From the IMG/VR virus record IMGVR_UViG_3300025101_002824, positions 50,085-114,084 of that record: DNA of 64,000 nt. One strand, given 5' to 3'. Made by a program: the position numbers and the translations under genes. This stretch comes from a virus. The notes under the pieces were generated by a model that saw only the letters and a list, made by a program, of their open reading frames with translations, was not told the DNA's origin and made no database searches. Shown here piece after piece: positions 9,860-40,238 of this stretch. Position 1 is the first letter of the stretch, and each line of letters begins with the position of its first letter.

Positions 9860-9861
9860 GG

Positions 9862-20415: not shown

Positions 20416-23400
20416 ATGGCTAAAAAGCAGCAAAAAAATACAGGTGGGAAAAAAACTCCTAAACGTCAAAATACTGACATAGTAAATACTAATGCCTTTA
20501 TTAAAGGTATGAATAAAGATACTGATAGTGGATATTTTGATAAACAAAGTTGGTATCATGCACGTAATTTAATAAATAATTCTGTTGATGGTGATTTAGG
20601 TGTAGTTGGTAATGAACCAGCAAATTTAAGATGTGCAAAGATTCCTTATACTGTTATAGGAGGTATTCATTTATATGGAGACCAGTGGGTAATATACTCA
20701 ACTAATGATATATTAAGTGAAATAGGTTTATTTGACGACAGTGAATGTAAATACACTACATTAGTAAATGATGATTGTCTTAATTTTAATAAAGATAATT
20801 TAATTATAGGAGCTGCTAAAGAAAATTTTGATTGCACATGGCAAGTATATTGGGATGATGGTTTAAATCCATCCAGAACATTAAATATTGATAATATACC
20901 ATATGTGCAAATAGTTGATCCAAATACACCAGCTGGATCTACATGTATAAATTATATTAATGCTGAACCATTAATGTTAGATTGTGAAAGAATTAGATTA
21001 GCTCCATTAATTGATATACCATGTATTAAATTAGAAAAAGCAGATCAAGGAGGATTATTAGAAAATGGTAGTTATCAAGTATATGCAGCATATTGTATAA
21101 ATGAAAAACCTGTTACAGATTATTTAGGTATTTCAAATATACAACCAATTTGGTCAAGAGAAGATACACAAGGATCACTTACAATAGAACTTTCTAATTT
21201 AGATACTGAATTTGATCAATTACAAATTGTTGTTAGATCTAGAATAAAAGGTCAAGCTACTAATACAGTATTAGGTTTATATAGCACAGAAACAAAATCA
21301 ATAAATATTGATTATATAAATGCTGAATTACCAAAAGTATTATCAAGCACATTACAAAGAAGAATTCCTACATATGAAAAATCTGAAGGAATGTTTGTTG
21401 TTAATGATTATTTAATAAGATCACAACCTACAGAACAATTTGATTTTAACTATCAACCTTTAGCTAATAATATCCAAACATACTGGACTTCTACACAATA
21501 TCCTTCTAATTATTATAGAGAAGGTGGTAACAAACCTACACTATTAAGAGATGAGCAATATGCTTTTTTTATAAGATTTATATATAATACAGGAGAAAAA
21601 TCAGCATCATATCATATACCTGGACGTGCTCCAACAGCTGCTGATGAATTACCTATTGGAGGTGCTGGTAATAATTTTGATAACTCACCAACATGGAGAG
21701 CAGGTAATACTGCATCTTCTCAACCTGGAAATCCTTTTGTAGCTTCATTACTTGGAACTAATACAGATGATGGTGGAACTATTATTGATGGAGGTCTAAT
21801 GGGATTTTGGGAATCTACAGAAGTTTATTCACCTACTGACCCAACTAGATATGGTAATCTTTGTGGTCAACCTATAAGACATCATAAAATTCCTGATGAA
21901 ACTGTTCCTGGTATAGGGACTACATTAACAGGAGCTGGTGAAACCATTCATGTTATAGGTGCTGCTTTTGATAATATAGCACCTCCTGTTGATAATGATG
22001 GTAATGTAATACCTAACATTATTGGATATGAAATATTAGTAGGTAGCCGAGCAGGTAATAGATCTATACTTGCTAAAGGTATTATGAAACACATGTTTAG
22101 GTTTAGAAGAACTCAAAATGATGGTATACGTAATGCTCAAGGATCACCAGATAATTTTGCTTCAGGAACAGGTTTAATGCCTAATTATCCTTTTAATGAT
22201 TTAAGAGCAGATCCTTATTTAATTGGTAGAGATAGTAATAGTATTAGCCAATTGCCTTGGTATGCACAATTTGGAACAGCACCAGAAGAAAATTGGCACA
22301 GAGGAAATACAAATCAAGCTGATGGTTTAGAATTTAATACTGTTGATGCACGGACATTTACTTTTCATTCACCAGAATTAAATTTCTCTAGATTATATTT
22401 AAATCCAACTACAGTAAAAATTTATAAAACAGTAAGTGGAATTGTTTTAGGAAGATTTAAAAAATCAGAAGAACATCCTAGAATGAAGTTATTAAAAAAT
22501 AGAGCAGCAACTGTAGCAGCATTAGTTGGTGTAGGTTATGCTTTAGCAGAAATGCGTGGTAAAAGAAATTATAAGATTGATACCATGCAATCTACGTCTA
22601 TTGGTGAATTTGGTGCACATGCTTTAGGATCTGGTTCACATATGTCACCTTTTGTTGGTCCTGGTACAGGACTTGCTGCTGCAAATGTAGGTGCATCATC
22701 AGCAAGTATTTGGCTTGGAGCTGCAGCAGATGTAGGTTTTAATACTTTAGTTGATATAGGCGCTATATTTGGTGCTGGTAAAGTAGTTCGTCAAGTAGGT
22801 ACACCTATTTATCAACAAGTTGAAGTTGCGTCTACAGCTGCAGCAGCTGGACATATTGGTCCAAAAAGATCTATTCAATATATGGGTAGTGATTTTTCTT
22901 CTATTCCTTCATTAATGTCTATTGCAATAGGTATTATTTCATTTTTAAATTATGTTGCAGTTGGTGGTGATAAAATTATTGATTTAATATTGAATCTTAT
23001 AGGGTTTCAAAACTATGCAATGAAATATATATCTCATGGATATTATCAAAATGAAACTCCATTTTTAGGTACACAATTTAGACAATCTGTAGATAGAGCA
23101 AGATATATTAAAAGTGCTATACAATCATTTGATGGTCAAGATGTAATATACAATAACCTTAGACCTTCTACTGTTGTATTTAAAGTGGCTAATCCATGGG
23201 GAGATTCTTTACCAGGAATTAATGGAGGGCCTATTGATAACACTAAATTTACAATTGGTGCAGGAGCAAATGGATGTGCAGGTAATGGTAATAATAGTAT
23301 GAGTTGGTATAATCCAGGAGAGGAAGTAGAATCAACTGCAGTTGCACATTATATGTCATTTAAAACTTTAATGGATAATCAATATGGTCAGTTAGATAGT

Positions 23401-26400
23401 ATTATTCAACTTACTACACAAAATTGTTTTTATTTTAGAACACAACAAAATGTTGATCCTGATGGTAATATTCTTCCAATAATTTCACAAGATAGATTTA
23501 GTACTGATACAGTATATGCGGGTGATTCATATATATGTAGATATACAGAAAAATCAATTATGCCATTCTTCTTTGACTTTTTAAAAGAAGGAAGAGATGG
23601 TATACCATTTGATTATTCTAAATATGCAAATGTACCATTTCCTAGATTTTGGATGAATTCAGAAAAATTCCGTATGGATCAATTTGTAAGACCAATAACA
23701 AGTTTAAGGTTTAGATGGAATGGAACTGAAGCTTTACCTTCTGGGTATTATAATATGGATTGTCCAGAAAATGGTGGTTATTGTGCACCTCAAGGTGTTT
23801 TTCAACCAGGTACAATTGGTACAGGATTAGGTGCAAATTTTGGTGAAGGAGGAGCTGCTGGTTCAACACAACAAGATGGATCTTCTGCTGGTTCTGGTGC
23901 TATAAATCAAAATCAAACTGGTTTTACACAAAGTTCAGCTGTAGGTGGTGCAGCTTGGGATGATCCTAATGATGATTGGAATCTAGAAAACAGTATGGCA
24001 GCATATAATAATAGGTTTCAAGTTATAAATATTAGTGGTAATGGTAATGGAGGTTCAGATATACCATATAATATTAACATGGGTAGTAATAGTGAAAGAT
24101 GGTCAATAATTGGAGCAGGACAAGATGTTATAACAATAACACCTGCAGCTGGTGTACTAAATCCAGTCCCTACAAATCCAGCAAATCCGCCTGGACCAGC
24201 TTTAGCTGCAGCCGTAGAAACTACACCTAATTTTAATATAACCATAGAAGATCATAGTTACAGTGTACCTTTAGATTCTCCTGGTAATGGACCTTCTATT
24301 ACTAAACAATGTGGTTGTGATTTTGTTAGTTTTGTTAGAGAAGATACAGATGATAGTACATTTACTCCTAGTTTATTTAGTGATTTTGGAACAGCAACAG
24401 CAAGATTAATTTGGGATTGGTCATCTGGTACATTTATAGGTATGACAAATGTAGCAACTGGTTTTTATGCTTCTAATGACCCTACAATAACTGCAGGTGG
24501 TACAGGAAATCCAAGTGATGTTTTAACAAGTTCTGCAAATTTTACATTTCAAAGTGGACTTCTGACTAATCAAGTACAAGATGGTTTTCCATTTGTTTGT
24601 AACAATACAGCAATAATGGGTCAAGGTGCATTTCAATTTCCTAATGCTCAAGCTACTCCAGGAGGTGCTAATGATATAAGTGCTGCTAATCAAAGAAATG
24701 GTGTACAAGCTGGTGGACCAGGTGATCCTCAAGCTCTTGCTGATAATGCCGAACAAGCAGCACAAGATTCAGTATTTGTAACAGGTAATCAACCAGGAGC
24801 TGTAGGTGCTGGTGGTACTGCTACTGGGGGATTATTTGTAATTAAAACAGGATATATGTATACCCATAATTGCGGTATAAATGATTTCTGGGTTGAATCT
24901 TCAATGAATCTAGCTTATAGAGATTATGAAGATGTAGCAAGAAAACAACATTATGATGATGAAAATTTTACTGATCTTGTAGAATTATTTCATGCTAAAA
25001 TTGTAAATTTAGATAATTATTATTTTTATGATAGATCAACATCAGTTGATAAATTTTGGGGTTCATCATGGGGACGTATACAACCAAGTTATTATGATCC
25101 ATTAATTGCAGAAAACTGTTTTATTAAATATCCAAAAAGATTATTATACTCAGTTCCAGCTACAGGATTTAAAGATAAAGCAACGCTTTCAAATAAAAAT
25201 GATGCAAAACAAGATTTTTGGAGAGTGTATCTTACAGAAAACTTTAGAGATTTTAAAGCAAAAGTTACAACAATAAAACCTATTAATGAGACAGGAGCTT
25301 TAATATTCTTTCCAACAATGTCTCCTAAAATGTTCCAAGGACAAGATAGATTACAACTATCTAATACAAAACTTACAATTGGTGATGGAGGATTATTTAG
25401 TCAAGCTTTTCAAAATATAACAAACTCTGATGTATCACACGAGTATGGATCATGTGAAAGTGCAAGAAGTGTATTAAATACTCCTTTTGGTATTTTCTTT
25501 GTATCTCAAGCACAAGGTAAGATTTTTCAATATAGACCAGGTGGTGGTTTAACACCAATATCAGATCAAGGTATGAAATGGTGGATGAATAAATTTTTAC
25601 CATCTAAGCTATTAGAATACTTTCCTTTAATAGAAGATTGTCCTGAAGCAGTAGACAATCCTGTAAATGGTGCAGGTATACAAACTGTATATGATCCTAA
25701 TAATGACATAGTATATTTCTGTAAAAAAGATTTTATACCATTACCGCAATTTCAAGATAATGATTGTATAGAATATATACCTTGTGAAGGTTTTGTTTAT
25801 AATGCAACAAATTGTGAAGGTTTACCACAAGTACCTTCATGTCCTGAAGGATATACATTAATACAAGATCCTGTAACAGGGCAAGATGTTTGTCAATTAT
25901 TATATACTGAAGAACCAATTATATTAGCTACAGAACAATTTAATTATGGTGCAGGTATTGCTATTGGTACTGACTTAGGATTTGGTAATAATGGAACAGC
26001 AAGATATGGTGTAGATTGGCCTATTGTAATTGATGATGTATTTACTGATGGAATGCCTACTAACCAAGCTGATCCAAATACATGGCATTATATAACAGAT
26101 AATGGATCAAATGCATGGTGGAGAAATGCAAATCCAACTAATGGAACAAATGGTATTATTAACAGATTAATGAGAGGAGCTGCTGGTACACCAGGGGGAC
26201 AATTTGCACAAGCAGAATTTCAAATTAATATTCCTACTGCTAAAACTGTACATATTTTATTAGCAGCTGATAATGCGTTTGCATTAGATTTAGATACTGG
26301 AACAGGATATACAAATTTTGTAACACCTGTTGATGCAACTATATTTGGTGCTGTAACTCAGGGTGGTGGTATATGGAATCCTCAAGCAGTTCCAGGAGGA

Positions 26401-28836
26401 AATTTTGCATGGTTATCAGGTGATGCAGTTGATGCATCTCAATATTCAAAAGCTTGGATATATAAATTAGATTTACCATCAGGATGTACAAAATTTAGAA
26501 TGACAGGTACTAACAATGGTGCTGGTTTTGCAGGTCTTGCTGCTGCTGTTATTGATGTTAATGATTATCAAGATATACAAGATGCTACATCATGGGAATC
26601 TTTACCTAAATTATGGGATTCTGAAACTTATGATTTTATTGTTCCTGGAACTACTACTGATTTTAGATGTCCTCCAAACTTTACAATATTTACTGACGGT
26701 ACAGATGGTAGTACAGAAGAGTGTCCAGTATGTAGAGAAGATATAATAATATATAATTGTGATTGTATGACAGATCCAACATCTAATATACCAGGTGTAT
26801 TAATAGGAACATGTCCAGATGCATTTGGTAATGCTGGATCATCTTATTGTCAATACGAAGGATATGCTGATGTTGAAATGATTGATCAAACTTATCCTAT
26901 AGAAGTATTAGATACTAATTACTTTAAAGATATATCTTGGACTATTAGTTATGATCCAAAAACTAAAGCATGGTTATCTTTCCATGATTGGCATCCTAAG
27001 TTAGCATTTAATAGTATAAGACATTTCTTAACTACTAATACTGAAATGACAGAAGTTCCTCAATGTCCAGATGGATATACATGGAATGGTACAAGATGTT
27101 GTTTATCATTACATCATGAAGAGTTAGCAGAAGTTAATGTAACTGAATTTTTATCTACAGTTGAAAGTACACCAGCAACTGTACAAGCATTTTCTGAAAC
27201 AATGGATATTGTTATTGTAATAGATTTTTCAACATCTATGAGAAACAATGGTGGAATTGGAGCAGCAATGCAATTTGTATCAACATTTGTAAGCGGTATG
27301 GCTCCAGGTATGTTAGGAGGTCCATATGCAGGTCAAGTAAGAATAGGACATGGTAGATGGGGTAGTGGTTCTGCATCTGCGTCTCCTCCAGGAGATCCTG
27401 CACAAATAGTAGGTTTAACTGATGATCCAGCTATAGCTGGTGGAAGTCTTACTGCTACTAATACTCCAATAGGTCAAACACAATATTGGCCACAAAGTGG
27501 AACAACCTTTAATGATGGTATAGATCTTGCTAATACTATGCTTACAGGAAGTACAGCTCAACAAAAAATTGTTATATTTGTTACTGATGCAGGTAGTGCT
27601 CCAAATAATCCAACAAATTTAGCAAATGCTACACAATTAATAGCATTATTTGTTGATAATGCAACTAGTGCAAATAATTGTAGTACTACTACTGGTTATG
27701 GTGATGATCTTGGACCTTTAATTACAGATACAGGTTTACCATCAAATCCGGCATATGATGTTGTAAGATGCGCAAATGTTGGAACTCTTCCAAGAAACGT
27801 ATATCATATAGGGTCAGGTATTGATCCTGGTGAAGAAGGACATGCAGCTTCAGTTGCACAAGATTTAGTTCAATCTTTTACACAATGTACATGTACACAA
27901 GGAATAATTGATACAAGTCCTCTTAATCCTCCATGTTTACCTTTACCATCACCTCCACCACAATGTATAACTTGTTCTTGTCCTCCAGGATTTACTTTAA
28001 TTGGTACTTGTGATAATTCACAAAATCCACCAATATGTAGAAAAATGGATTGTGAATGTACAAGTCCTTTATTTAATCCAGATGAAGACTTAACAATAAG
28101 TGGAGAATGTGATGATATTGTACAATATTTTAATCCATTAACTGGAACAGGTAATCCAACTTATGTAAATACTAATCCTTTATTTTGTATATATGATTAT
28201 GAAGATTGTGTACCTGCTAATTATGAATTAGGATTCTTTTGGAAACATAATATTAGAACTGATTTATTTAATAATTATTATGATAAAAATTATCCTTGGG
28301 AAGTAGATATAATTGAAACTACTGGTCAGCAAGTTACTACATTAAGAAGTATAGAATATCAAATGGAAGCTTATTTATATCAAAATGAAGGTAAAGATAG
28401 ATTCCATGATTTAGATTATAATTTTGATGAAGCTGTTATTTATAATTCAGAACAAGTATCAGGATTATTAGAATTAGAATTAGAACCAAAAAATAATGTT
28501 CAATTGTCAATGTTATATCCTATTGTTGGACCTAACAGTATAAGAACATTGTTTAGTAAAGTTGAACAAAAATATAGATTTAATCAATTTTTTGATATTA
28601 CTGCTGACAGAGGAGAGTTTACAGCAGCAACTAATACAATTTGGGAAACAGATTGGGATGGATATGTTAGAACATTAAACCCAGCTAATTTAAATTATAA
28701 TAAAGCACAACATCAAAGAAAGAAATTTAGACATTACTTTAATCATGTGCTATTAAGAAAATCAGATGAAGCTGCTACAACTAGAAAGATGTTATTAAAA
28801 TTAGAGAATACTAAATTAAATGTATCATTTAGATAA
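20416..28836 (+). CDS. Muzzle / tail stabilisation protein (P22 gp10-like) with large insertions including a vWA domain
   Basis: 2806 aa; KGMNKD at the N-terminus, YWDDGLNPSRTLNID, RDEQYAFFI, PISDQGMKWW, WTISYDPKTKAWLSFHDWHP are characteristic of crAss-like stabilisation proteins; vWA MIDAS DFSTS near 27223. Confidence 0.75.
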   Translation: MAKKQQKNTGGKKTPKRQNTDIVNTNAFIKGMNKDTDSGYFDKQSWYHARNLINNSVDGDLGVVGNEPANLRCAKIPYTVIGGIHLYGDQWVIYSTNDILSEIGLFDDSECKYTTLVNDDCLNFNKDNLIIGAAKENFDCTWQVYWDDGLNPSRTLNIDNIPYVQIVDPNTPAGSTCINYINAEPLMLDCERIRLAPLIDIPCIKLEKADQGGLLENGSYQVYAAYCINEKPVTDYLGISNIQPIWSREDTQGSLTIELSNLDTEFDQLQIVVRSRIKGQATNTVLGLYSTETKSINIDYINAELPKVLSSTLQRRIPTYEKSEGMFVVNDYLIRSQPTEQFDFNYQPLANNIQTYWTSTQYPSNYYREGGNKPTLLRDEQYAFFIRFIYNTGEKSASYHIPGRAPTAADELPIGGAGNNFDNSPTWRAGNTASSQPGNPFVASLLGTNTDDGGTIIDGGLMGFWESTEVYSPTDPTRYGNLCGQPIRHHKIPDETVPGIGTTLTGAGETIHVIGAAFDNIAPPVDNDGNVIPNIIGYEILVGSRAGNRSILAKGIMKHMFRFRRTQNDGIRNAQGSPDNFASGTGLMPNYPFNDLRADPYLIGRDSNSISQLPWYAQFGTAPEENWHRGNTNQADGLEFNTVDARTFTFHSPELNFSRLYLNPTTVKIYKTVSGIVLGRFKKSEEHPRMKLLKNRAATVAALVGVGYALAEMRGKRNYKIDTMQSTSIGEFGAHALGSGSHMSPFVGPGTGLAAANVGASSASIWLGAAADVGFNTLVDIGAIFGAGKVVRQVGTPIYQQVEVASTAAAAGHIGPKRSIQYMGSDFSSIPSLMSIAIGIISFLNYVAVGGDKIIDLILNLIGFQNYAMKYISHGYYQNETPFLGTQFRQSVDRARYIKSAIQSFDGQDVIYNNLRPSTVVFKVANPWGDSLPGINGGPIDNTKFTIGAGANGCAGNGNNSMSWYNPGEEVESTAVAHYMSFKTLMDNQYGQLDSIIQLTTQNCFYFRTQQNVDPDGNILPIISQDRFSTDTVYAGDSYICRYTEKSIMPFFFDFLKEGRDGIPFDYSKYANVPFPRFWMNSEKFRMDQFVRPITSLRFRWNGTEALPSGYYNMDCPENGGYCAPQGVFQPGTIGTGLGANFGEGGAAGSTQQDGSSAGSGAINQNQTGFTQSSAVGGAAWDDPNDDWNLENSMAAYNNRFQVINISGNGNGGSDIPYNINMGSNSERWSIIGAGQDVITITPAAGVLNPVPTNPANPPGPALAAAVETTPNFNITIEDHSYSVPLDSPGNGPSITKQCGCDFVSFVREDTDDSTFTPSLFSDFGTATARLIWDWSSGTFIGMTNVATGFYASNDPTITAGGTGNPSDVLTSSANFTFQSGLLTNQVQDGFPFVCNNTAIMGQGAFQFPNAQATPGGANDISAANQRNGVQAGGPGDPQALADNAEQAAQDSVFVTGNQPGAVGAGGTATGGLFVIKTGYMYTHNCGINDFWVESSMNLAYRDYEDVARKQHYDDENFTDLVELFHAKIVNLDNYYFYDRSTSVDKFWGSSWGRIQPSYYDPLIAENCFIKYPKRLLYSVPATGFKDKATLSNKNDAKQDFWRVYLTENFRDFKAKVTTIKPINETGALIFFPTMSPKMFQGQDRLQLSNTKLTIGDGGLFSQAFQNITNSDVSHEYGSCESARSVLNTPFGIFFVSQAQGKIFQYRPGGGLTPISDQGMKWWMNKFLPSKLLEYFPLIEDCPEAVDNPVNGAGIQTVYDPNNDIVYFCKKDFIPLPQFQDNDCIEYIPCEGFVYNATNCEGLPQVPSCPEGYTLIQDPVTGQDVCQLLYTEEPIILATEQFNYGAGIAIGTDLGFGNNGTARYGVDWPIVIDDVFTDGMPTNQADPNTWHYITDNGSNAWWRNANPTNGTNGIINRLMRGAAGTPGGQFAQAEFQINIPTAKTVHILLAADNAFALDLDTGTGYTNFVTPVDATIFGAVTQGGGIWNPQAVPGGNFAWLSGDAVDASQYSKAWIYKLDLPSGCTKFRMTGTNNGAGFAGLAAAVIDVNDYQDIQDATSWESLPKLWDSETYDFIVPGTTTDFRCPPNFTIFTDGTDGSTEECPVCREDIIIYNCDCMTDPTSNIPGVLIGTCPDAFGNAGSSYCQYEGYADVEMIDQTYPIEVLDTNYFKDISWTISYDPKTKAWLSFHDWHPKLAFNSIRHFLTTNTEMTEVPQCPDGYTWNGTRCCLSLHHEELAEVNVTEFLSTVESTPATVQAFSETMDIVIVIDFSTSMRNNGGIGAAMQFVSTFVSGMAPGMLGGPYAGQVRIGHGRWGSGSASASPPGDPAQIVGLTDDPAIAGGSLTATNTPIGQTQYWPQSGTTFNDGIDLANTMLTGSTAQQKIVIFVTDAGSAPNNPTNLANATQLIALFVDNATSANNCSTTTGYGDDLGPLITDTGLPSNPAYDVVRCANVGTLPRNVYHIGSGIDPGEEGHAASVAQDLVQSFTQCTCTQGIIDTSPLNPPCLPLPSPPPQCITCSCPPGFTLIGTCDNSQNPPICRKMDCECTSPLFNPDEDLTISGECDDIVQYFNPLTGTGNPTYVNTNPLFCIYDYEDCVPANYELGFFWKHNIRTDLFNNYYDKNYPWEVDIIETTGQQVTTLRSIEYQMEAYLYQNEGKDRFHDLDYNFDEAVIYNSEQVSGLLELELEPKNNVQLSMLYPIVGPNSIRTLFSKVEQKYRFNQFFDITADRGEFTAATNTIWETDWDGYVRTLNPANLNYNKAQHQRKKFRHYFNHVLLRKSDEAATTRKMLLKLENTKLNVSFR

Positions 28837-30377
28837 TGAAATATAGCAAGGACGGATATAAAAGAAATAGCAAGGATAAGAATAATCCTTATAATATAAT
28901 ACCATCAGGTAATATAACTATGGAGGATGTAGATTTTCCTGTACTTGGTATGGATAACTTAGGTAATAGTAAAGTTATGATGCCAGGTGCTAATTATACA
29001 TTTCCTGGCAATTCTGTTTTTGAAATACCAATGTTTTCTAATGGTGGACCTAAAAAAAATAAATATGGTCTTACATATAATCTTTTAAAAAGTTATATTG
29101 ATAGAGGAAAATTAAATTATGGTCTTATAAAACAACATCCTAGATTACTTATTCCTAGTACTATAAGAAATCAATATGATTTATATAAGTATATGAATAC
29201 TGCAGATATGCGTGGTATTACTGGTAGAAATCTTATAGACAATGTTACAATACCTATTCAAAAAGGCAGTAGTTTAATTCAGCATAGAGGTTTAAAAAAT
29301 TCTTCTGAAATAGATGAATCTATGGAAAAGATATTAGCAGATTATACAATTAATTCTGCTCCTTTTAAATTTAGTTCATTTGATGGAAAATCAGGATATG
29401 TGCCTCAAGGTGGTTTTCCAATGGTAAATACAGGAGATACTAGACCTTTTTTTATACAAGATGATTCATATGCAAAACTATTAGATGACTATTTAAAAAA
29501 TAATAATATTAGTTGGAAAAGTTTAGATAGAGATAAACCTATAGAATTAAATAGAGCATTTGGAACATTTGATGTTACAAGTTCTTCTGGCGGAAGTTTA
29601 CAAGATTATATAGATAGATTAAAATCAGGAGAAGTTTTTAGTTTAGGAGATATAACATCTTGGTCAATTGGTAAACCTTTACCACAATTTGGTAGTCAGA
29701 GATTTTTAATTAAAAATTTTCCAACTAATAGAAATGCGTTTGTAAATAGACCTGATTTAAATAAATTTTTAACTAGAAATCAAAAACAATCATTTGTTGA
29801 AACAGAATTATTATTACCAAGTGATACAAAATTTAAAGTAACTAATTTAATTAAAAAGTCACCAAGACAGCCTCTTGAATATAAAAAAGATAGCAAAGGT
29901 TTAATTTATGATCCAGTACCACAATGGGGAACAGATATTGAATTAGAAGTACAAAAAAAAGGTGGTGAAAAAAAATCTAAATATGTTAAATCTCCTTTTA
30001 CAAAAGGAAAATTATCTTTAGCAAATACAGATGGTTTAATAAATAAAATGATTAATCAGGGTATTTTTAAATCTGAATTTGCAATGGGAGGACAGTTAAA
30101 ATTAAATAATGGATATACAGTAAAAAAACATTTTGATAAATTAAAAGACATACCTTATATATCATATACAAAACAACCTGATATAGAAGGAAGAGTATAC
30201 TATGATTCAGATAGCACAGATGTTTTAGATGATTTTAACATTATAGATGTTGAATCAAATTTAATTAAAAAACAAAGAAAACATAAAAGAACTAAAGATA
30301 TAATATTAAAATATAAAAACGGAAATAATCTTACACAAACAGAAAAAGCACATTTAAACTCATTAGGGTTATTGTAG
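28836..30377 (+). CDS. Putative virion cargo protein containing an R-S-E (VIP2/Alt-like) ADP-ribosyltransferase domain
   Basis: 513 aa; LADYT, IELNRAF (R), DITSWS (S-x-S), ETELLLPSDTKFKV (E-x-E plus LLPxxxxFxV) in the canonical order. Confidence 0.7.
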   Translation: MKYSKDGYKRNSKDKNNPYNIIPSGNITMEDVDFPVLGMDNLGNSKVMMPGANYTFPGNSVFEIPMFSNGGPKKNKYGLTYNLLKSYIDRGKLNYGLIKQHPRLLIPSTIRNQYDLYKYMNTADMRGITGRNLIDNVTIPIQKGSSLIQHRGLKNSSEIDESMEKILADYTINSAPFKFSSFDGKSGYVPQGGFPMVNTGDTRPFFIQDDSYAKLLDDYLKNNNISWKSLDRDKPIELNRAFGTFDVTSSSGGSLQDYIDRLKSGEVFSLGDITSWSIGKPLPQFGSQRFLIKNFPTNRNAFVNRPDLNKFLTRNQKQSFVETELLLPSDTKFKVTNLIKKSPRQPLEYKKDSKGLIYDPVPQWGTDIELEVQKKGGEKKSKYVKSPFTKGKLSLANTDGLINKMINQGIFKSEFAMGGQLKLNNGYTVKKHFDKLKDIPYISYTKQPDIEGRVYYDSDSTDVLDDFNIIDVESNLIKKQRKHKRTKDIILKYKNGNNLTQTEKAHLNSLGLL

Positions 30378-30401
30378 TAAAATTAGTTAAATTGCTTTAT
30401 T

Positions 30402-30422
30402 TTTAGTATATTATTAATGTAG
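30402..30422 (+). promoter_or_regulatory. Putative late promoter motif, copy 6
   Basis: tttaGTATATTATTAATGTAg; core identical to the copy at 15234. Confidence 0.7.
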
Positions 30423-30443
30423 AATGGTGTCCATATAACAATT

Positions 30444-33407
30444 ATGAAAAGAAATAAAAAAAATAATCAAAAACAAACTTTTGACGTTTATCCAATGTTA
30501 TCTGATTATCAATATGTTACAGGTATACCTATGATGCAAAATGGATCTGAATTTTTTAGCTATGATGACTACATGACTGATTTAGTATTGGCAAATACTG
30601 GTACAGAAACACCTACACCTTTTATTCCTAAATATAACATAGATAATAATTATACTCAAACAGGTGATATAGAATATGGTATACCAAAGTCAATAAGTAC
30701 AGCTAATCCATTATTAAATCTTGCTAGTAGTTTAACTAAATTTAAAAATCTTGGTACAGATTTTAAAAATGCACTTGGAAATATAAATCCTAGAACAGGT
30801 TTACCTTTTAAAAAATCTGACTTTGCAAGAACTACACTTACTAATACAACAGATGAAAATGTAATATTAGATGGAGAGGGTTTTAAAAATTTATATGATA
30901 AATCAGGAAATATAAATCAAGATGCAAATACTGCTGAAAATTTGTTTATGACTCAAGATGAAGCTAAACAAAAATACTTTAATACATTAGCAAAACAACA
31001 TTCAGAAACATATCTTGATAATGATGGAAATTCATTATTAAGTAAACAAGTAATGAATGATGATGGAACTATTTCTTATGCTGATATTACAAAACCTAAT
31101 CCTAACTATGATCCTTCAAAACCAGAAGGACCTGGTAATGAAAAAACTATAACAGTCCCTTTTACAGATGCTGATAAAACTGCAGGTGATATAGCACAAG
31201 AAAATGTAAAAGATATTAATGTACAAAGTTTGTTATATAACGATGACTTAACTGAAGTTACTAAATTATCAAGAGTAACAAATACAGGTGAAAAAGAAAT
31301 AGCAGATTATGATGCAGATAAAATAGCAACAGAAGGAACATATAATTTTAATGTGCAAGAAAATATTGGTCAAGATCCAATTGATGATAGATATTTAATG
31401 GCTGGAGGAAGTTTTCCAAGAAATAATCTTTCTGCTTTTGTATATGGAGGAGAAGAAATACCTGAAGCACAGTTTGGAAAAAGTAATTTTAGAAACTATA
31501 CATTAAGAGATCCTAATTTTACTATAGGAACTAAAACTATAGCTCCAATAAACAGAATAACAAGAAACTTACCATTTGGTGCTGTTGATAAAGGTGTTCA
31601 ACAAGGATACGGATTTAATGCTAATATACCTCTTGTTTCAAGTCAATTACTTAAAACACCAACTTCACAATTAGTTGGTAATATAAATATAGGCACAAAT
31701 GCATATAGAACACCAGGTAGTGAAAGATATGCTACAAAATATGTAGATTCAGATATGGACATTATGATGGAAAATGCACCTTTACATTTACAAAATGTAC
31801 AATCTGCATATGGTGCATATCAAGATTATTCTGCTCCTTATATGACTAATGTAGGTCAACGTATTGGTATTGGTGGTGATTATACTTATTCACCAAGAGG
31901 GCTTGGTAGAGATCTTGCTATTGATTTAGGTGCTGATCTTGGATTAAATTATAGTAGAGGTGAGCTTGGCTCTGACTTTGCATATGTAGATAAATTTGAA
32001 AATTTTCATGGTTTAGAAAATGATGCAGCTATAAATATTTTTGACTCAGTAACACCTGAAATTGAAGGTAATTTATTTGGAGTTGATGCAGGAGCATACG
32101 CAGGTTTAAGAAATCAAAATACAGGACTTTCAGGAGGTATATATGGTAATTATGGTACAATGAGAACAATAAATCCAGGTATGCGTTTAGGTTTTAAAGG
32201 TAATATACCATTAATTAGAGGAAAGGGTAATATGCGTGGATTTAATATTTCAGCTAGTCCAGATATAAGTTATGATTTTCAATCAAACACACCTAGATAT
32301 GGTTTTGGAATTAGTGCAGGATTTGAAGATGGAGGAGAAAATTTACAAAAATATCAAGGTGATGTAGGTCCAAGTGAAACAAATAAAGAGACATATATAT
32401 TTAATGGTCAACAAGTTACTGAAGAAGAGTTTAATAGATTATCTAAAGAAAGTCAAAATGATTTTAATGAATTTAGAAATAATACTAATTCTGAAAGACA
32501 AAATTTTATGAACCAAACACCATTTACCTCTTCACAAAATAATGAAGGGGTTGGTTCAGGCCCTACTAATCCAGGTGCTACAACTTCTGGACAATCAGTA
32601 AATCCTGTTGTAACTGCTCCTTCTATGAATGAAATTGCTGGTGGTACTCCATTAGATTTAGATTTACCAACTCCAGATTATATGAATCCTCTTGGAATGA
32701 ATCAAGAAATACCAACTAATCCTAATCAAGTTGATACATATGAAGTAAGTACTGAAGGTACACCTGTTGATAATACTGATATACCAGTTGTAGAACCAGA
32801 AGGACCAGCTGCTCCTGTAGAAATGAGTTTTAGTCAACCTGATCTTACTGATGAGCAAAAGGCTAATATGACTGAAGCAGAAATAAAAGCTTATGAAAGA
32901 AAACAAAAATTAGATTCAGCATATAATGAAGGTAATGCATTTATGAATACAGGTTTTGTAGGAACAGCTAAAAGAGTATTTGGAGAAGCTGCTAAAGCTG
33001 CTACAATGGGTGCAGATTCAATAAATTATTTTGCAGGCTATGGTGACATGTTAAAAAATGAATTAGAAACAGATAATGAACAAGATGAAATAGGTGATTT
33101 TGTTAATCCTATTGAAGCTAGTAGAGGTGATAAAGGTGATTATGGTGTAAACTCAGGAGCGTATAGAGTTAATAGTTTAGGTTATGGTGATGGACCTAGA
33201 GGTCAAATTGCACAAATGGGTACAGAAACAAATGGTATGCCTAAGCCAGATTATAGTTCGTTACAACAATTTTTAAATCAAACTATAGTTTCTTATGATC
33301 CTAAATTTTTAATGATGCAGGCAAAAAATGGTGAAGAGATTATAGATGCAGACATGGAACTAATTAAACAACTAATGGCAGCGGGGGCTGACTTTGAAAT
33401 AATGTAG
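30444..33407 (+). CDS. Putative virion cargo protein with central beta-barrel-like module
   Basis: 987 aa between muzzle and vRNAP; several xxGG-type motifs; amphipathic Gly/aromatic strands in the middle. Confidence 0.55.
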   Translation: MKRNKKNNQKQTFDVYPMLSDYQYVTGIPMMQNGSEFFSYDDYMTDLVLANTGTETPTPFIPKYNIDNNYTQTGDIEYGIPKSISTANPLLNLASSLTKFKNLGTDFKNALGNINPRTGLPFKKSDFARTTLTNTTDENVILDGEGFKNLYDKSGNINQDANTAENLFMTQDEAKQKYFNTLAKQHSETYLDNDGNSLLSKQVMNDDGTISYADITKPNPNYDPSKPEGPGNEKTITVPFTDADKTAGDIAQENVKDINVQSLLYNDDLTEVTKLSRVTNTGEKEIADYDADKIATEGTYNFNVQENIGQDPIDDRYLMAGGSFPRNNLSAFVYGGEEIPEAQFGKSNFRNYTLRDPNFTIGTKTIAPINRITRNLPFGAVDKGVQQGYGFNANIPLVSSQLLKTPTSQLVGNINIGTNAYRTPGSERYATKYVDSDMDIMMENAPLHLQNVQSAYGAYQDYSAPYMTNVGQRIGIGGDYTYSPRGLGRDLAIDLGADLGLNYSRGELGSDFAYVDKFENFHGLENDAAINIFDSVTPEIEGNLFGVDAGAYAGLRNQNTGLSGGIYGNYGTMRTINPGMRLGFKGNIPLIRGKGNMRGFNISASPDISYDFQSNTPRYGFGISAGFEDGGENLQKYQGDVGPSETNKETYIFNGQQVTEEEFNRLSKESQNDFNEFRNNTNSERQNFMNQTPFTSSQNNEGVGSGPTNPGATTSGQSVNPVVTAPSMNEIAGGTPLDLDLPTPDYMNPLGMNQEIPTNPNQVDTYEVSTEGTPVDNTDIPVVEPEGPAAPVEMSFSQPDLTDEQKANMTEAEIKAYERKQKLDSAYNEGNAFMNTGFVGTAKRVFGEAAKAATMGADSINYFAGYGDMLKNELETDNEQDEIGDFVNPIEASRGDKGDYGVNSGAYRVNSLGYGDGPRGQIAQMGTETNGMPKPDYSSLQQFLNQTIVSYDPKFLMMQAKNGEEIIDADMELIKQLMAAGADFEIM

Positions 33408-33409
33408 TT

Positions 33410-36400
33410 ATGAAAATTAAACTTAAAAATATCCCGGAAGGGTTTGAATTAAAAAATAACAGGCTTGTAAAAAAAATGGCGGCTGGTGGTACTGTAGGTA
33501 GCACTTTACAACCTGTACCACGTGATGAAGCTAATGTTGAAGCAGAAAAAAATGAAACTGTTTTAACTGATGCTGATCAAGATGGTTTTTATGAATTATA
33601 TAATATAGGAGGTAAAAGACATTCACAAGGTGGAACACCTTTAAATTTACCAGAACAATCTTTTATTTTTTCTGATACAAGAAAAATGAAATTTACAAAA
33701 GAAGAACTAAAAGAACTTGGTGTATCATCATCAAAGAGACTTACCCCTGCTGCAGTCTCTAAAAAATTTCCTATTAATAAATATATGGAAGTTCTTAAAG
33801 ATCCTAGCTCAGACGATATTGCAATTCAAAGTGCTGAGGCTATGATAAAAAAGAATAAAATAAAACTTTCTCAAATTGCTTTTATGCAAGAAAAGAAAAA
33901 AGATTTTGAAGAAGGTTTACCATTAGCTGCATACCCATATCTATTAGAGAATGGTATAGATCCAAAAGAGTTTGAAATGAAGATTGAACAAGCAAAACAA
34001 TCTGAACAACAAATGGCTCAAGGTATGCAAGAAGGAATGCCACCACAAGGACAACCATCACCTCAAGAAATGGAACAAATGGCTATGGCTATGCAGCAGC
34101 AAGGTCAAGGTATGCCTCCTCAAGGTATGATGCCACCTGCTCCACAAGGCATGATGCCACCACAAGAAATGATGCCACCAATGCCTCAAATGGGTATGGC
34201 TATGGGTGGTATGGAATTACGTAATTTTATATATGGTAAAGAAGGTAAAGAAATACCTACTAATAAAGGATTTCAAGCATTACCACCAGCAGCACAAAAA
34301 AATATTATTGACAATATGCAAAAGGGTGGTCAACCATCAATTATACCAGCAGAAATGATGGAGCAGTATAATGCATGGAGAACACAAAATAGATTAAAAG
34401 ACATACCTGAAATACAGATGATGTTTTTAAATACTATGGAAACTGGAGCGCCTATAATGCCTGGTCATTCTGATATGTTTAAGTCTACACCAAATACTAC
34501 AAATAAAATGGCTGTAGGAACATTACCTGGTTGGAAAGAAACATTAAAAGGTTTTATTCCTGATGATTATGATTATGTAGTAGATGATCCAATGCAAGGA
34601 ATGAAAGATTTTATAAATTATATAAGTCCATTTGAAGAAGGTGGATCATATAGTGGACCAAAAGGAGAAGCAGCTTATTTAGCTAGAAAAGATGCTGCTA
34701 TAAAAAAGGCTATGGATAAAGAACAAGATGGTGGAGATCCAAATGCAATGAGTCCTGCTGATCAACAAATGCAAGCATTAATTAATGCACAACAACAGTT
34801 AGCTCAACAAAGACAAATGATCATGATGGCTTATCAGGAAAATCCTGAGCAGTTCTCTAGTCCAGAAGCTCAATCAGGATTAGAAGAAAGACTTATGATT
34901 TTAGATCAAAATCTTGCACAAGTTCAAGCACAATTACAAAAATTATCAGAACAAGAGTTTCTTGCAGAAACAACTATTCCTCTGTCAGAATTTGTAGGAG
35001 AAACTAATATTGCTGCAAAACAAAATATGGGTTATGATTTTTATAATCCTCAATTAATGATGGCTAGAGAAGGAAAAGAGTTACCAGCTTATCAAGAAGG
35101 CAATGGTGAGAATTCTTTTCTTTATGAAGGCACCGATGATATGGGTTATCCAATATCATTAAATCCTTATTTTAGAACATCTCCAACTGGTCAATATATA
35201 AATGGTGAAGAAAATCCTAATTATGATGCAGAATTTGAAAATAAAGTAGATGCAGGTATAGGTGCTCATGAAGGTTATTATAATATTATGAATCAAGATA
35301 ACTTTAAAGGAGTTAGAGATGCATGGATAAAAGCATATAAAGATTTAGATGATCCTGCTAAAATAACAGGTAAGTCTGATAAAGAATTATATAAAGCATT
35401 TAATGATATGAATATATTGTTTAATGCAGCATTTTCATCTGGTGTAAGTTTTAAAGATGGTGATATTACAGCACAATTAAAAAGAAATGCTGAAAAATTA
35501 GGAATGCCTGTTCCTGATGAAGAATCAATTAAAATGTATCAAGGTATGTATAATGCTTTAGCTACTTTAAAAGAAACAGGTACTGATGAACAAAAAGAAT
35601 TACTTCAACAAGTTAATATAAATTATAGTACTAATACTGGAGGTGCTTATGAAATTGTACCAAATAGTGGTAGATTTGTTTCTAAAATTGATGGTAAAAT
35701 TGGTGATAACACAAGTCAACAGTTTGTTTCTGTAACTGATAAACAAGATAATATAGATATAGACTTTGAATGTGATGAAGAAACTAAAAGGCTTAAAATG
35801 CAAGAATGCATGGAGCAAGGTAAAGGTTTTAATGTAAAAGCTTGTGACTGTGAAGAAGAACCAGAAGATACACCTACAGGTGACATCCCACCATATTTAA
35901 CATTTCCAGGAGATGATTTAAAAGTAGGAGCTTTAGCAGCACTTACAATGCAAAGGGATAAAAAGTATGGAAGAAAGCGTAACTATGATCCAATTATGAG
36001 AGATCCTGGTTATGTAGATGATAGAGCTGCAGTAGCTGCACAAACAGCTTTGGCTAATCAAGCTATGGCTGTTTCAAGAGATCCTTCACAGGTTCAAGGT
36101 GCAGCACAAGATCAAATAGATAAAATTCAAGCTAATAGATATGCTACTAATACTAAAATATTTGATAATACTCAAGCTTATAATGTAGCAGAAATAAATA
36201 AATCTAGAGAGTTAAATGATAAATATATGTCTGATTATGTAGACATGGTGAATCTTGTAGATCAAAATTATGACAATGTTAAAGGTCAAGATATGATGAA
36301 TCTTGTTGATGCTGAAGTAACTAGAATGGATAACGCTGATAAATTATATGAACTTAATTTAAGAAATCCAAATTATTACTTTGATCCTCAGCAACATAGA

Positions 36401-36745
36401 ACTATATTTCAAAATCCTGAAGCATTAGAAGCATTTAGAGGTAATCCTAATACACAACCTATAACAGTAGAAGACGCAATTGCATCTTGTAAAAAATCAG
36501 GAGTACCAGAAAGTCAAATAATGCAATGTGTTAAAGTAAAAATGGAATCTGTAAATAATCCAGGAGGTGTTGATTACACAAGAAATGAAATAGCAAATAA
36601 TAATATAGATGCAAATAATCAAAATGATGATAATACAACAACTGGTAGATATGGAGGATCATTTAAATATGGAGGAGCAGTTAGAGAACAAGATTTAATA
36701 AACAGTAGAATTAAATTAAGAAATTGGATAATGGGTAATGAATAA
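33410..36745 (+). CDS. Putative virion cargo/ejection protein
   Basis: 1111 aa; N-terminal NVEAEKNE...GKRHSQGG...FIFSD domain, Met/Pro/Gln-rich linker, many xxGG motifs. Confidence 0.6.
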   Translation: MKIKLKNIPEGFELKNNRLVKKMAAGGTVGSTLQPVPRDEANVEAEKNETVLTDADQDGFYELYNIGGKRHSQGGTPLNLPEQSFIFSDTRKMKFTKEELKELGVSSSKRLTPAAVSKKFPINKYMEVLKDPSSDDIAIQSAEAMIKKNKIKLSQIAFMQEKKKDFEEGLPLAAYPYLLENGIDPKEFEMKIEQAKQSEQQMAQGMQEGMPPQGQPSPQEMEQMAMAMQQQGQGMPPQGMMPPAPQGMMPPQEMMPPMPQMGMAMGGMELRNFIYGKEGKEIPTNKGFQALPPAAQKNIIDNMQKGGQPSIIPAEMMEQYNAWRTQNRLKDIPEIQMMFLNTMETGAPIMPGHSDMFKSTPNTTNKMAVGTLPGWKETLKGFIPDDYDYVVDDPMQGMKDFINYISPFEEGGSYSGPKGEAAYLARKDAAIKKAMDKEQDGGDPNAMSPADQQMQALINAQQQLAQQRQMIMMAYQENPEQFSSPEAQSGLEERLMILDQNLAQVQAQLQKLSEQEFLAETTIPLSEFVGETNIAAKQNMGYDFYNPQLMMAREGKELPAYQEGNGENSFLYEGTDDMGYPISLNPYFRTSPTGQYINGEENPNYDAEFENKVDAGIGAHEGYYNIMNQDNFKGVRDAWIKAYKDLDDPAKITGKSDKELYKAFNDMNILFNAAFSSGVSFKDGDITAQLKRNAEKLGMPVPDEESIKMYQGMYNALATLKETGTDEQKELLQQVNINYSTNTGGAYEIVPNSGRFVSKIDGKIGDNTSQQFVSVTDKQDNIDIDFECDEETKRLKMQECMEQGKGFNVKACDCEEEPEDTPTGDIPPYLTFPGDDLKVGALAALTMQRDKKYGRKRNYDPIMRDPGYVDDRAAVAAQTALANQAMAVSRDPSQVQGAAQDQIDKIQANRYATNTKIFDNTQAYNVAEINKSRELNDKYMSDYVDMVNLVDQNYDNVKGQDMMNLVDAEVTRMDNADKLYELNLRNPNYYFDPQQHRTIFQNPEALEAFRGNPNTQPITVEDAIASCKKSGVPESQIMQCVKVKMESVNNPGGVDYTRNEIANNNIDANNQNDDNTTTGRYGGSFKYGGAVREQDLINSRIKLRNWIMGNE
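34010..34212 (+). repeat. Low-complexity (P)QG(M)MPP-type repeats
   Basis: MAQGMQEGMPPQGQPSPQEMEQMAMAMQQQGQGMPPQGMMPPAPQGMMPPQEMMPPMPQMGMAMGGM. Confidence 0.8.
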
Positions 36746-36792
36746 ACTTTAAGAGTTTAATTTAATACTTATTAAAACTTATAAAATTTTAG

Positions 36793-36800
36793 TATTTTTG
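36793..36800 (+). promoter_or_regulatory. TAnnTTTG-type element 4 nt before ATG
   Basis: ttttagTATTTTTGtaatATG. Confidence 0.4.
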
Positions 36801-36804
36801 TAAT

Positions 36805-39800
36805 ATGGCAACTTACTTACCAAATGTAAAAGATTATGTACCTGAATTGAAGGCATATACGCCTGATTTTAAATTTTTGTCTGATGCATTAGATCAAAGA
36901 CAAGACAGGTATAATAAAACAACCAAGCAATTAAACAATTTGTATGGTGATGTTGTATATGCTGATTTATCTAGAGAAGATAATCAAGCACTTAGAGATA
37001 GTTATGCAAAAAAACTTGCTCCTAAAATACAACAAATATCAGGGTTAGACTTTTCTTTGGCACAAAATGTACAAGCTGCAAAAGGTTTATTTAAACCATT
37101 CTATGAAGATGAAAAACTTGTAAGAGATATTGTTTATACAAAGACTTATAAAGATCAAATGGGTTTAGCTAACTCATATAAAAATGCTGCTAGTGATGAA
37201 CAACGTAAAAGATATTGGGATGATGGAGTCCAATATATGAATTATATGATGGATGATTTTCAAAATAAATCAAGATCAGAATCTATGAGTGTTCCATTAC
37301 CACAATATTTTGAAAACCCTAATCTGTATGAAAAAGCTATGGAAGTTTTAAATACAGGTGGACCAGATGGTAAAGGTTTTAAATCAACTCAAACATATGT
37401 TGATCAAACGGGTCAGTTTATTGTTACACAAGAAAATGGTATAGCATTATTAAGTAAACCTACAGGAAAACAAATAGCAAACCCTAATTTTGATCCTAAT
37501 AAAAAAGTATCTACATCTAATCCTAAGATGATTGAAGAGATGTATAACCCTGCTGCTAATCTTATAAATGAAACTATAACTGATGATCCTACTATAGTTC
37601 AAGGTTATCAAATAAAAGCATATAATAATGCAAGAAAATTTTATGAAGAAGAAGCTAAAAAATCTGGATTACCTGTAGATCAGTTTAAAAAACAATGGGT
37701 ACAAATGCAATTAGGTCAATTTGATGCTGAAAGTAAACAAACTTTAGAAAAAGAAAATGTTGAACTTAATAATACTAGATCTGAATTAGCAAGTTGGGAT
37801 TCTTATGTTAAAGAAGCTCCACTTATTGAAGGTTCAGAAGAATATCAAAAATGGTTTTATGCTATGACAAAAGGTGAAACTATTGAACAAGGTATTAATA
37901 AACTTGAACAAAAAAGAAATAATATATTAAATGGTGTTGATTCAGAAGATTTAGATGCACTTTTAAATAGAGGTTATGCAGCATATATTGCAAATACATT
38001 AGGTAAAGATATTTTTACAGCAGCTAGAGACTATGCTGATCTTACATCACAACATTCATTTGAAGAAAGTAAAATTTATTTAGAAAAACTTAGAGCAAGA
38101 AATAATAAAGATCTTGAACTATTTAAAAGAAGATTAGATTTAGAAGAACAAATTAAAAAAGATTTAGAAGAAATAGAAAGAAATAGCATTAGACCCAATG
38201 CTATACCAGGTGATTCAAGAGAAAATATTACATCTAGAGGAAATCAAATAGAAAGAAATGAAGCTGGTGAATTAAAAGTTCACAAAGAAATAAATACAAG
38301 AAAAATACAAACATTAGCTACTTTTTATAGAGTTATGGCTGATGATTTAAATACTCAAACTAATTTAGATAATATGGCTGGGTATTTACTTACAGATGCT
38401 AACAGAGGGACAGGTGAAGTTAAATCTTCCGGTATATTCTTGCCTAATCAAGCAGGTACAGCTTTACAATTTTATCAATGGGATGAAGCAGTTCAAGCTT
38501 TAAATAATAATCCACAAATTTTAGATTATCATTTTAATAAAATAAAACAAATACAAAATGATCCAGATTTAGCTGCATCATATAAAAAAGAAATAAATAA
38601 CAATGTTAGATCAACAGTAGGAGTTTTAATTGATGATATTGATTTAAGAAATGAAAAATTAACTGTTATAAAAGATCTAGAAAGTAAAGTATATAAAAAT
38701 GTTTTATCAACTATACCTGTTGACGATCTTAGAACAGGTTTAGGTCAAGAAAATTTATCTGATTGGAATATAATGTTATTTGATGAGAATGGTTATATGA
38801 TACCTACAGAAACATTATATAAAAATAAAGTTCAAGAAATAGTAACTAATATACAAAATTTAGCTCCTAAATCATTACCAAGTGATGCAGAAATTTATGA
38901 TCAAATTTTTGATCCAAAAACTAATAATATTATTACAATAGATCAAGGTATACCAGGAGCTTTATTAACTACTAAAGAAGCACAAGATGCAATGAAATCA
39001 TTACCAAATGATCCAAGTAGATTTAATCCACAAATGATAATGAAAGTTATGGGACAAGCTGTAAGAGCTAAAATGCTTAAAGATATAGCTAAAACAGTTA
39101 ATCAAGATCCTGGTACATTTCTTGTAAGATATTATCAACCAACTAGTGATGGTACATTTAAATTTGGTTATGGTGCTACTGAAGATTTTGCACCATCATA
39201 TGATACAGATGAGAGTAGATCTGCTTCTGATCCAAATACATATCCTATGCAAATTGCAAATGAAGTTTTAGAGTATGGTAGTTTTAAACAAATTATAGAT
39301 AAAGTTAAAAATCAAATGGCTGTTGAAATGGATAAAGAAACAGCTATTCCTTTTGAAACTACATTTGATTTTGATTCTTTTTATTATGGTAATCAAACAG
39401 ATGGTGATATGTCTATAGCACCTATTATACCTTTTAGATATGATGCTGGTACTAAAGATAAGTATGTAAATCAACAATTAGATTTATTTTTCTCTGCAAT
39501 AGATAATATGCCAGATAATCAAGTATTTATGACTGAAGGAGATGCTGGTGCAGCATTTAGCATGAAAATTAGTGAAAATGATAGAAGAACTGCTGAATTA
39601 GTTTTAAATGAAATTAGAGCTGATAGAAACTGGAAACCAGGTGGAGGTGCTGAAACCAAAGGTACTCCTGGATATAGAATAGAATATAGTGGTTATGGTG
39701 GTGGAGAATCAGCAGATGGCAAGTATGCAATGTATAAATTTATATTAGATGGTGATTATGCTAAAAGAATTGCTAGCAATATAGATGTTAATTTTGGTGA

Positions 39801-40230: not shown

Positions 40231-40238
40231 TATAAAAG

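Follow-up and report, generated by a model that had tools for sequence, protein, structure and literature searches.

The 64,000-nucleotide stretch analysed here (the window) covers bases 50085-114084 of the viral genome IMGVR_UViG_3300025101_002824, which is 114,084 bp long with a completeness rating of 99%, and is the late region of a marine crAss-like phage. Downstream of the muzzle gene lie, in order, genes A (513 aa), B (987 aa), C (1111 aa) and D (1141 aa) and the gene of a 5149-aa protein, presumably a virion RNA polymerase fusion according to the label given to it in the first-stage notes on the sequence. A, B and C share a short recurring peptide built around Gly-Gly, referred to below as the seam. 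A preliminary description of the window had listed copies of an xxGG motif in these three proteins, all of which are present where they were reported according to the translations and coordinates, and had proposed that the motif is a portable tag that marks payload modules for capsid binding or cleavage. The comparisons reported here support a construction from exchangeable payload modules joined at the seam.

28836..30377, plus strand: gene A, 513 aa; start overlaps the muzzle stop; leader, payload and conserved C-terminal domain
30444..33407, plus strand: gene B, 987 aa; conserved N-terminal third, swappable middle cassette and conserved C-terminal tail
33410..36745, plus strand: gene C, 1111 aa; header, conserved N-terminal domain, seam-rich linker and conserved helical C-terminal part

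The motif was counted in the loose form originally described, [MFYA]xxG[GKTSE], and in a strict form, [MFY]xxGG, and expected counts were taken from shuffles keeping the amino-acid composition of each protein. The strict form occurs 10 times in A, B and C together against 2.4 expected (p=0.0004) and the loose form 26 times against 13.8 (p=0.0024), while the proteome outside these proteins, taken over the whole 114,084-bp genome, holds 29 copies against 26.9, so that the recurrence exceeds both a composition-matched background and the rest of the proteome. No other protein of the window is enriched in the Gly-Gly core; with the loose pattern only, the proteins encoded at 4183-5808 and 6913-7617 also reach p<0.05. 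D is not enriched in the motif, and the putative polymerase fusion has it at chance level, in copies that resemble ordinary sequence. Two of the copies first listed, ANTGTE and GKEGKE, are weak, degenerate forms.

The excess extends to related proteins, with 671 occurrences of the motif pattern against 182 expected in 120 homologues of C. Across 12 syntenic loci, Phi-x-x-G-G (where Phi is hydrophobic) is found 55 times in B (17.0 expected), 32 times in C (11.4) and 30 times in A (15.9), and shows no significant excess in the muzzle protein and D. At the same loci [AMFYL]QxG is enriched about threefold in A and B and lies at or near background in the muzzle protein, D and E. The N-terminal parts of the polymerases reach 1.8 times the expected number of copies (3 against 1.6 in the window's own copy), an excess attributed to conserved columns being counted across ten homologues. 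In a scan of all gapped tripeptides in the 12 syntenic proteins at position B, M..GG came out on top (21 copies against 3.0 expected, p=1e-11), followed by AQ.G (24 against 4.8).

According to a consensus derived without prior assumptions, xxGG opens a composite seam about 14 residues long, Phi-x-x-G-G-x-(L/I)-P-(K/E)-(A/Y)-Q-x-G-(G)-E, whose other half, (A/Y)-Q-x-G, explains the odd A-Q-x-G-x-E variants among the copies first listed. Complete composites occur within the window at residues 332-346 of B and 551-567 of C. The seam is also present in the syntenic proteins of 11 other phages, in 120 C homologues, in an annotated Cellulophaga virion protein and in the listed members of more than 2,000 protein clusters that have the 70-aa leader of A. 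In the bodies of 150 listed leader-bearing proteins, [AMFYL]QxG occurs 298 times against 99 expected (3.0x) and Phi-x-x-G-G 246 times against 151 (1.6x), with reversed and Ala/Ser control patterns at 1.0-1.2x. The glycines are invariant or nearly so amid gappy linkers in alignments of 13 and of 68 C homologues, and insertions specific to lineages bring their own motif copies. In AlphaFold models of A and C, the copies sit where a helix or strand comes to its C-terminal end and model confidence drops over a short gap. Recent literature on crassvirus cargo, and the string LPKAQ, yielded no account of a motif like this.

The architecture of A illustrates how seams separate a conserved carrier from a variable body. 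Model confidence is given as the predicted local distance difference test (pLDDT).

28836..29039, plus strand: leader domain of A, residues 1-68; small beta domain of six strands, pLDDT 88-96
29031..29048, plus strand: seam 1 of A, residues 66-71; where the last strand of the leader ends, with low pLDDT from residue 69
29169..29951, plus strand: variable payload of A, residues ~112-372; ADP-ribosyltransferase-like
29949..29969, plus strand: seam 2 of A, residues 372-378 (G376-G377); between the last payload strand and the C-terminal domain
29973..30374, plus strand: conserved C-terminal domain of A, residues 380-513; pLDDT 87-97

PHROG 36695, a "virion structural protein", matches residues 4-72 of A. 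A sensitive search with A returned 2,055 cluster representatives; among the 150 listed, most match residues 1-72 only, the ends of the matches cluster at residues 66-77 and the bodies that follow the leader measure 0-2,696 aa. In the homologues, the border after the leader reads P-(M/L)-A-Q-x-G-(G/E). At seam 2, pLDDT below 50 is confined to residues 376-379, and C-terminal homology blocks of A begin at 349-395, eight of them at 369-384. The C-terminal domain itself recurs at the C-terminus of many longer proteins. Most syntenic loci have a conserved A leader; the L004/L005 pair starts differently and L018 is without an A-type gene.

By sequence and predicted structure, the payload of A resembles an R-S-E ADP-ribosyltransferase. 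Six (6) homologues of the payload all keep Arg, Ser-x-Ser and Glu-x-Glu in this order. With residues 233-376 of a low-confidence model, the best VIA-align matches are ADP-ribosyltransferases (Z 7.2-4.2), among them HopU1, a Tre1-type toxin, SdeA, SpvB, C2-I and VIP2 (Z 7.2-4.5), HopU1 giving Z 7.2 and a root-mean-square deviation of 3.0 over 87 aligned residues. Foldseek matches were weak (E 0.03-0.7), no Pfam or PDB sequence match was obtained for the payload, and the payload profile gave only a chance match against the PDB. The ADP-ribosyltransferase-like fold extends to residue 376, where seam 2 sits, and seams 1 and 2 flank the payload, in agreement with the initial statement that copies bracket such a domain. 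The payload is presumably injected to modify a host target.

In B, the variable part is a cassette in the middle of the protein:

31395..31481, plus strand: double seam of B, residues 318-346; one Phi-x-x-G-G, then a full composite
31482..32321, plus strand: Gly/aromatic-rich cassette of B, residues 347-626; missing in one homologue, replaced in four
32322..32339, plus strand: seam of B, residues 627-632; closes the Gly/aromatic-rich stretch
33312..33404, plus strand: C-terminal tail of B, residues 957-987; degenerate seam, then an amphipathic helix ending A-G-A-D-(I/F)-E-I-(L/M)

Homology of B with its relatives stops at residues 318-337. One homologue (P0133) joins residue 337, inside the composite seam, directly to residue 714, and P0131, P0132, P0134 and P0135 have other sequence in place of the middle cassette, the left edge of which lies at, or no more than about 30 residues after, the composite seam at 332-346. 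For the beta-barrel-like fold first suggested here, the ESM Atlas gave nothing of use with residues 340-640 of B. The C-terminal tail is recognisable in 12 of 12 syntenic B proteins (weakly in the L018 copy), the bodies of which are otherwise mostly unalignable. The tail is a better candidate than the seam for a true address or anchoring signal. A predicted complex of this tail with the N-terminal domain of C found no support (score 0.07, mark 0.32), a result that weighs neither way on binding.

C has the following parts:

33410..33490, plus strand: header of C, residues 1-27; basic beta hairpin (strands 12-15 and 18-21) ending in a seam
33491..34024, plus strand: conserved N-terminal domain of C, residues 28-205; 108-113 of 119 homologues span it
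34025..34747, plus strand: seam-rich linker of C, residues 206-446; Q/M/P-rich, five motif copies and two mini-modules
35060..35110, plus strand: composite seam of C, residues 551-567; G555 invariant, within the stretch 522-575 of pLDDT below 50
36647..36676, plus strand: tandem seam of C, residues 1080-1089; immediately followed by the last helix (1090-1107)

Neither G26 nor G27 varies among 13 sequences, and in 68 sequences their conservation is still at least 90%; G1082 is at least 90% conserved. The AlphaFold model of C, built on a 68-row alignment, has a mean pLDDT of 67.5, with values of ~80-90 at residues 85-200. Stretches with pLDDT below 50 comprise residues 23-32, 73-77, 206-269 (three adjacent stretches), 305-309, 359-420, 435-446, 522-575 and 1049-1093; every degenerate copy falls in them, as do 5 of the 6 strict ones, and several of these stretches are only 5-12 residues long, just the motif between two helices. 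Together with the leader of A, which stops at residue 68, these positions largely bear out the claim that copies fall at domain borders, the FAMGG copy of A being excepted. The syntenic loci follow a common plan, in which C has a conserved header and N-terminal domain, B a conserved tail, and the parts between vary.

The linker of C holds two mini-modules, residues 285-307 (window 34262-34330) and 413-442 (window 34646-34735), each ending in G-G. Mini-modules of 25-45 residues with G-G at both sides occur in C here and in B or C of other phages (L016:8640-9995; P0007-P0019). Among the types seen are an N-P-G-F-x-A-L-P-P helix module, an A-Y-L-A-R module and a His-rich module of ~45 residues (P-H-M-M-Y/F-D-P ... 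D-H ... L-H), possibly metal-binding. A further peptide, H-x-M-P-D-G-T-x-x-P-G-A-T-H, which may be a metal-binding insert, recurs in the linkers of the C homologues P0010, P0017, P0020 and P0032 and at L007:10001-10660, and does not occur in the C of the window. A Foldseek search of the C model against the PDB gave nothing significant; its top rows, alpha-pore-forming toxins at E 0.5, were not used. A visual impression that the N-terminal domain of C corresponds to the portal-bound domain of gp45, a cargo protein of crAss001, was rejected (hhalign probability 2%, no PF25725 match).

Exchange at seams was quantified from the ends of homology blocks, 43 of 280 of which lie within 8 aa of a motif, compared with 18.1 +/- 4.1 at random sites. 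The clearest single event involves a fourth giant protein encoded outside the window:

Genome 34844-43057 (L046:4845-13058), plus strand: fourth giant protein, 2737 aa; upstream of the window, first gene of the plus-strand block

This protein, which has no Pfam or PHROG match, begins with a basic header in which residues 7-14 form a seam, and canonical composite seams follow near 475, 919, 1339-1351, 1584-1597 and 2187, that is, about every 400 residues. At least four of its cassettes are shared with A-type proteins of other phages. One of them, residues 1598-2181 (L046 ~9636-11388), matches a relative's gene A at residues 81-664 (L001:3114-4865) with 95.2% DNA identity over 1,753 nt, while the same relative is far more diverged elsewhere, with protein identities of 45% in A, 67% in the muzzle protein, 69% in B and 80% in C. 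In both genes this mobile cassette begins right after a seam and ends 6-8 residues short of the next. It holds a zincin-type H-E-L-G-H, has no Pfam match and may encode a putative metallopeptidase travelling as payload. The block ends at motifs, the leader with its varied bodies, the relocated 1,753-nt cassette and the loss or replacement of the B cassette support swappable cargo.

The gene order from the muzzle protein through A, B, C and D to the 5149-aa putative polymerase fusion is the same as in crAss001, where the genes in this position encode the cargo proteins C1 and C2 and polymerase subunits, all of which were detected in virions (PMC10172136). Upstream genes of the window that define this setting are as follows:

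3-2720: P22-like portal; weak Pfam match (E 0.002, under the curated cut-off)
4183-5808: crassvirus major capsid protein (Pfam)
18840-20413: tail ring proteins 2 and 1 (Pfam)
20416-28836: muzzle protein (Pfam, PF25731)

Database searches with the downstream proteins were largely negative. No Pfam family matched A, B, C, D, the 5149-aa fusion, a 1848-aa protein or the 2737-aa protein; tblastn with A, B and C found no match in 50,697 phage records, and phmmer of the three against PDB sequences returned nothing. With the 75-aa leader alone, tblastn against the same records matched only Cellulophaga phages and one Leptolyngbya phage. Because the gene order matches the crAss001 cargo genes and the leader matches both a virion structural protein PHROG and an annotated Cellulophaga protein, A, B and C are most likely carried in the particle and ejected. 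The putative polymerase fusion itself has a zincin-type H-E-A-F-H (H-E-x-x-H) at residue 2172 (window 46752-46766), which lacks Pfam support.

A copy of the motif was also reported from a microprotein in the head-gene block, and it is present:

7620-7727, plus strand: very basic microprotein, 35 aa; one Y-K-K-G-G copy

The microprotein is kept with its Y-K-K-G-G in four close relatives (L020, L021, L025 and L027), while L024 and L026 have in its place a different lysine-rich basic peptide without the motif. It may be a DNA-condensing or internal peptide. Its membership in the seam system is uncertain, a single motif copy being beyond statistical test.

The best reading of the seam, tentative and a little short of probable, is that of an uncut module terminator and hinge. 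The hydrophobic Phi would close the strand or helix before it, as the final residue that faces the core, and the Gly-Gly would break secondary structure to give a short unfolded joint. Unrelated cassettes (ADP-ribosyltransferase-like, zincin-like, Gly/aromatic-rich and helical mini-modules of 25-45 residues) would thus be strung on carrier proteins with conserved ends, each folding independently, and the string could be fed through portal and tail like beads. Seams would be the positions where recombinants survive, allowing cassettes to move between phages and between carrier genes, and the chain would remain uncut. We infer both the hinge role and the lack of cleavage.

Several points weigh against this reading. 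A hinge leaves the conserved Q, the L-P-K and the trailing E unexplained, and such conservation is typical of a peptide that is read. The Gly-Gly itself lowers pLDDT, which makes the fit with low-confidence stretches partly circular, and there may be technical grounds on which BLAST blocks tend to end where a motif is shared. Copies are not joints in every case, since the FAMGG copy (A 415-419) forms a turn inside the confidently folded C-terminal domain. Finally, that A, B and C are present, and intact, in the virions of this phage is itself deduced from comparison.

Alternatively, the seam could be a docking handle, bound by a repeated site of the particle (portal, tail rings, muzzle or inner capsid surface) or by an assembly factor that recruits strings of cassettes. 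This is rather unlikely, although it accommodates the fixed residues beyond the glycines (Phi, Q, L-P-K and E), which recur in unrelated sequence, and the copies that lie, like an address, no more than 10-30 residues from the start of B, C and the fourth giant protein. The putative polymerase fusion and D, presumably packaged too, are not enriched, however, and the motif is predicted to be unstructured and has no candidate receptor. The gp45 protein of crAss001 is held by short segments on symmetric rings (PMC10172136), but the segments seen bound are helices beside its motif-like copies, not the copies themselves.

It is unlikely that seams are processing sites, at which a phage or host protease would cut before packaging or after ejection and free the cassettes. 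Several proteases of viruses and bacteria, among them adenain and the double-glycine leader peptidases, use sites that end in Gly-Gly; in the seam, however, the hydrophobic residue lies one position farther from the glycines than in the adenain site. The short seam-ended headers at the N-termini of B and C resemble propeptides, and the two zincin-type H-E-x-x-H motifs, in the putative polymerase fusion and in the mobile cassette of the fourth giant protein, could mark an enzyme, but the 5149-aa fusion, which would be most in need of cutting, has chance-level copies only, and one copy of A is buried in a folded domain. In the 99%-complete genome, no match was found to the S78 prohead protease (PF04586), with a profile that matched 4 control genomes, or to the C39 (PF03412) and C48 (PF02902) peptidases, both profiles of which also matched control genomes; the absence of a match to the T4-type S77 protease (PF03420) is uninformative, since this profile matched no control genome either. 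A host enzyme or an unrecognised fold may still serve as a Gly-Gly protease. Peptidase processing has been proposed for polyvalent proteins (Iyer et al. 2017, PMC5512222), while the crAss001 data fit intact cargo.

A role at the DNA level, in which the coding sequence would provide microhomology for cassette exchange, or be its scar, and the peptide would have no role, is improbable. Cassette breakpoints do lie at seams or a few codons from them, but codon use at the motif glycines is ordinary (GGT 61% and GGA 32%, against 59% and 34% at other glycines of the same genes), at least eight distinct G-G codon pairs are used, and it is the amino acids that are conserved, M, F and Y replacing one another. 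That the motif is a chance by-product of Gly-rich low-complexity linkers is scarcely credible: the loose pattern is only ~2x enriched and the linkers are Q/M/P/G-rich, but the composition-keeping shuffles give p 0.0004 to 1e-11, the control patterns are not enriched and the glycine columns are invariant.

Taking docking and cutting together, the broader proposition that the seam is a code read by the particle or its assembly line, such that any seam-flanked cassette on a conserved carrier is loaded and delivered, appears possible but on the doubtful side. If true, it would reveal a general, evolvable payload-loading system in thousands of uncultured marine crAss-like phages and some cultured Cellulophaga phages. 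However, the putative polymerase fusion and D, which by analogy with crAss001 are presumably packaged, lack enrichment, which argues against a tag that is a general loading code, and capsid binding or cleavage as a general code is somewhat disfavoured. Of the portable tag initially proposed, what stands is therefore a junction between swappable modules; nothing computed supports either capsid binding or cleavage.

The seam has consequences beyond the present phage. Crassviruses are among the most abundant phages, and it is a standing question by what means several megadaltons of protein enter and leave their particles. A seam that delimits exchangeable cassettes is a rule for how cargo proteins are built and evolve, and allows hundreds of unannotated injected proteins to be divided into candidate functional units. 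It also offers a specific peptide for testing the older idea of a processing or sorting of polyvalent proteins. Since the cultured phages phi4:1 and phi17:2 have the same leader and motif, the question is accessible in culture. If the seam is a loading code, it could become a tool to load chosen proteins into phage particles.

Among known systems, the internal proteins and Alt of T4 carry an N-terminal capsid-targeting sequence that is removed by the prohead protease gp21. The likeness lies in a short common peptide on unrelated head proteins that are injected, one payload being an ADP-ribosyltransferase. However, the T4 peptide is single and N-terminal, whereas the seam is internal and repeated 3-10 times per protein, and the analogy to T4-like targeting and cleavage drawn in the preliminary description fails on this point. 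Polymorphic toxins combine a conserved N-terminal delivery part, a border peptide (such as the VENN motif of CdiA) and hypervariable cassettes exchanged between strains. They share with A-type proteins a conserved delivery domain, a border peptide and variable cassettes, a likeness of design and not of ancestry; in contrast to these secreted bacterial toxins, the proteins described here are phage virion cargo, and the seam is repeated many times per protein.

The A leader has a match in a protein annotated as virion structural in two Cellulophaga phages, phi17:2 (gp041) and phi4:1 (gp40), and this protein holds 6 motif copies against 1.1 expected. In phi17:2, a cultured, non-crass phage, gp041 (L045:8968-11655) appears to combine an A-type leader and a stretch like the N-terminal domain of C in one chain with six seams; the resemblance of the latter stretch (E-x-E-K-G-E ... 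H-E-x-G-G) was judged by eye. If this join holds, gene borders in one phage would be seams in another.

The closest functional comparison within the crassviruses is gp45 of crAss001, the cargo protein C1, of which a tail-barrel helix (residues 214-245) and a portal-bound domain (425-552) were described (PMC10172136). The cargo of crAss001 was proposed to pass a narrow channel partly unfolded, and gp45 spans tail and capsid (PMC10172136). Bands of ~85, 100, 150 and 270 kDa were seen in gels of crAss001 virions (PMC6235969) and would fit full-length cargo proteins. Like A, B and C, gp45 is encoded directly after the muzzle protein and is a long, mostly unresolved chain with short structured pieces at tail and portal. 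Motif-like copies stand at its residues 17, 260, 443 and 559, the latter three at or next to the ends of resolved pieces, while the strict motif is not enriched in gp45 itself (3 against 2.2). In contrast, A, B and C gave no match up to E 10 to PF25725 (crAss_CARG1; gp45 residues 424-555), a profile that gp45 itself matches with 222 bits, and searching the whole genome in six frames with this family found no match. In addition, gp45 has not been described as having a seam, exchanging cassettes or starting with a conserved leader. By analogy, A, B and C may be called gp45-like in their working, without shown membership of the gp45 family.

Polyvalent proteins are large proteins of phages and conjugative elements, delivered with the DNA, that shuffle unrelated domains, including ADP-ribosyltransferases and zincin-like peptidases, and their peptidase domains were proposed to process them into units (Iyer et al. 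2017, PMC5512222). A, B and C resemble them as a set, with several unrelated effector domains shuffled between relatives and leader bodies of 0-2,696 aa. The words "linker" and "glycine", and any junction motif, are missing from that account (PMC5512222), and no description of a specific recurring seam peptide was found in published accounts of crAss cargo or polyvalent proteins. In contrast to the polyvalent proteins, the architecture described here is defined by a specific conserved seam together with conserved carrier ends, the leader and the tail.

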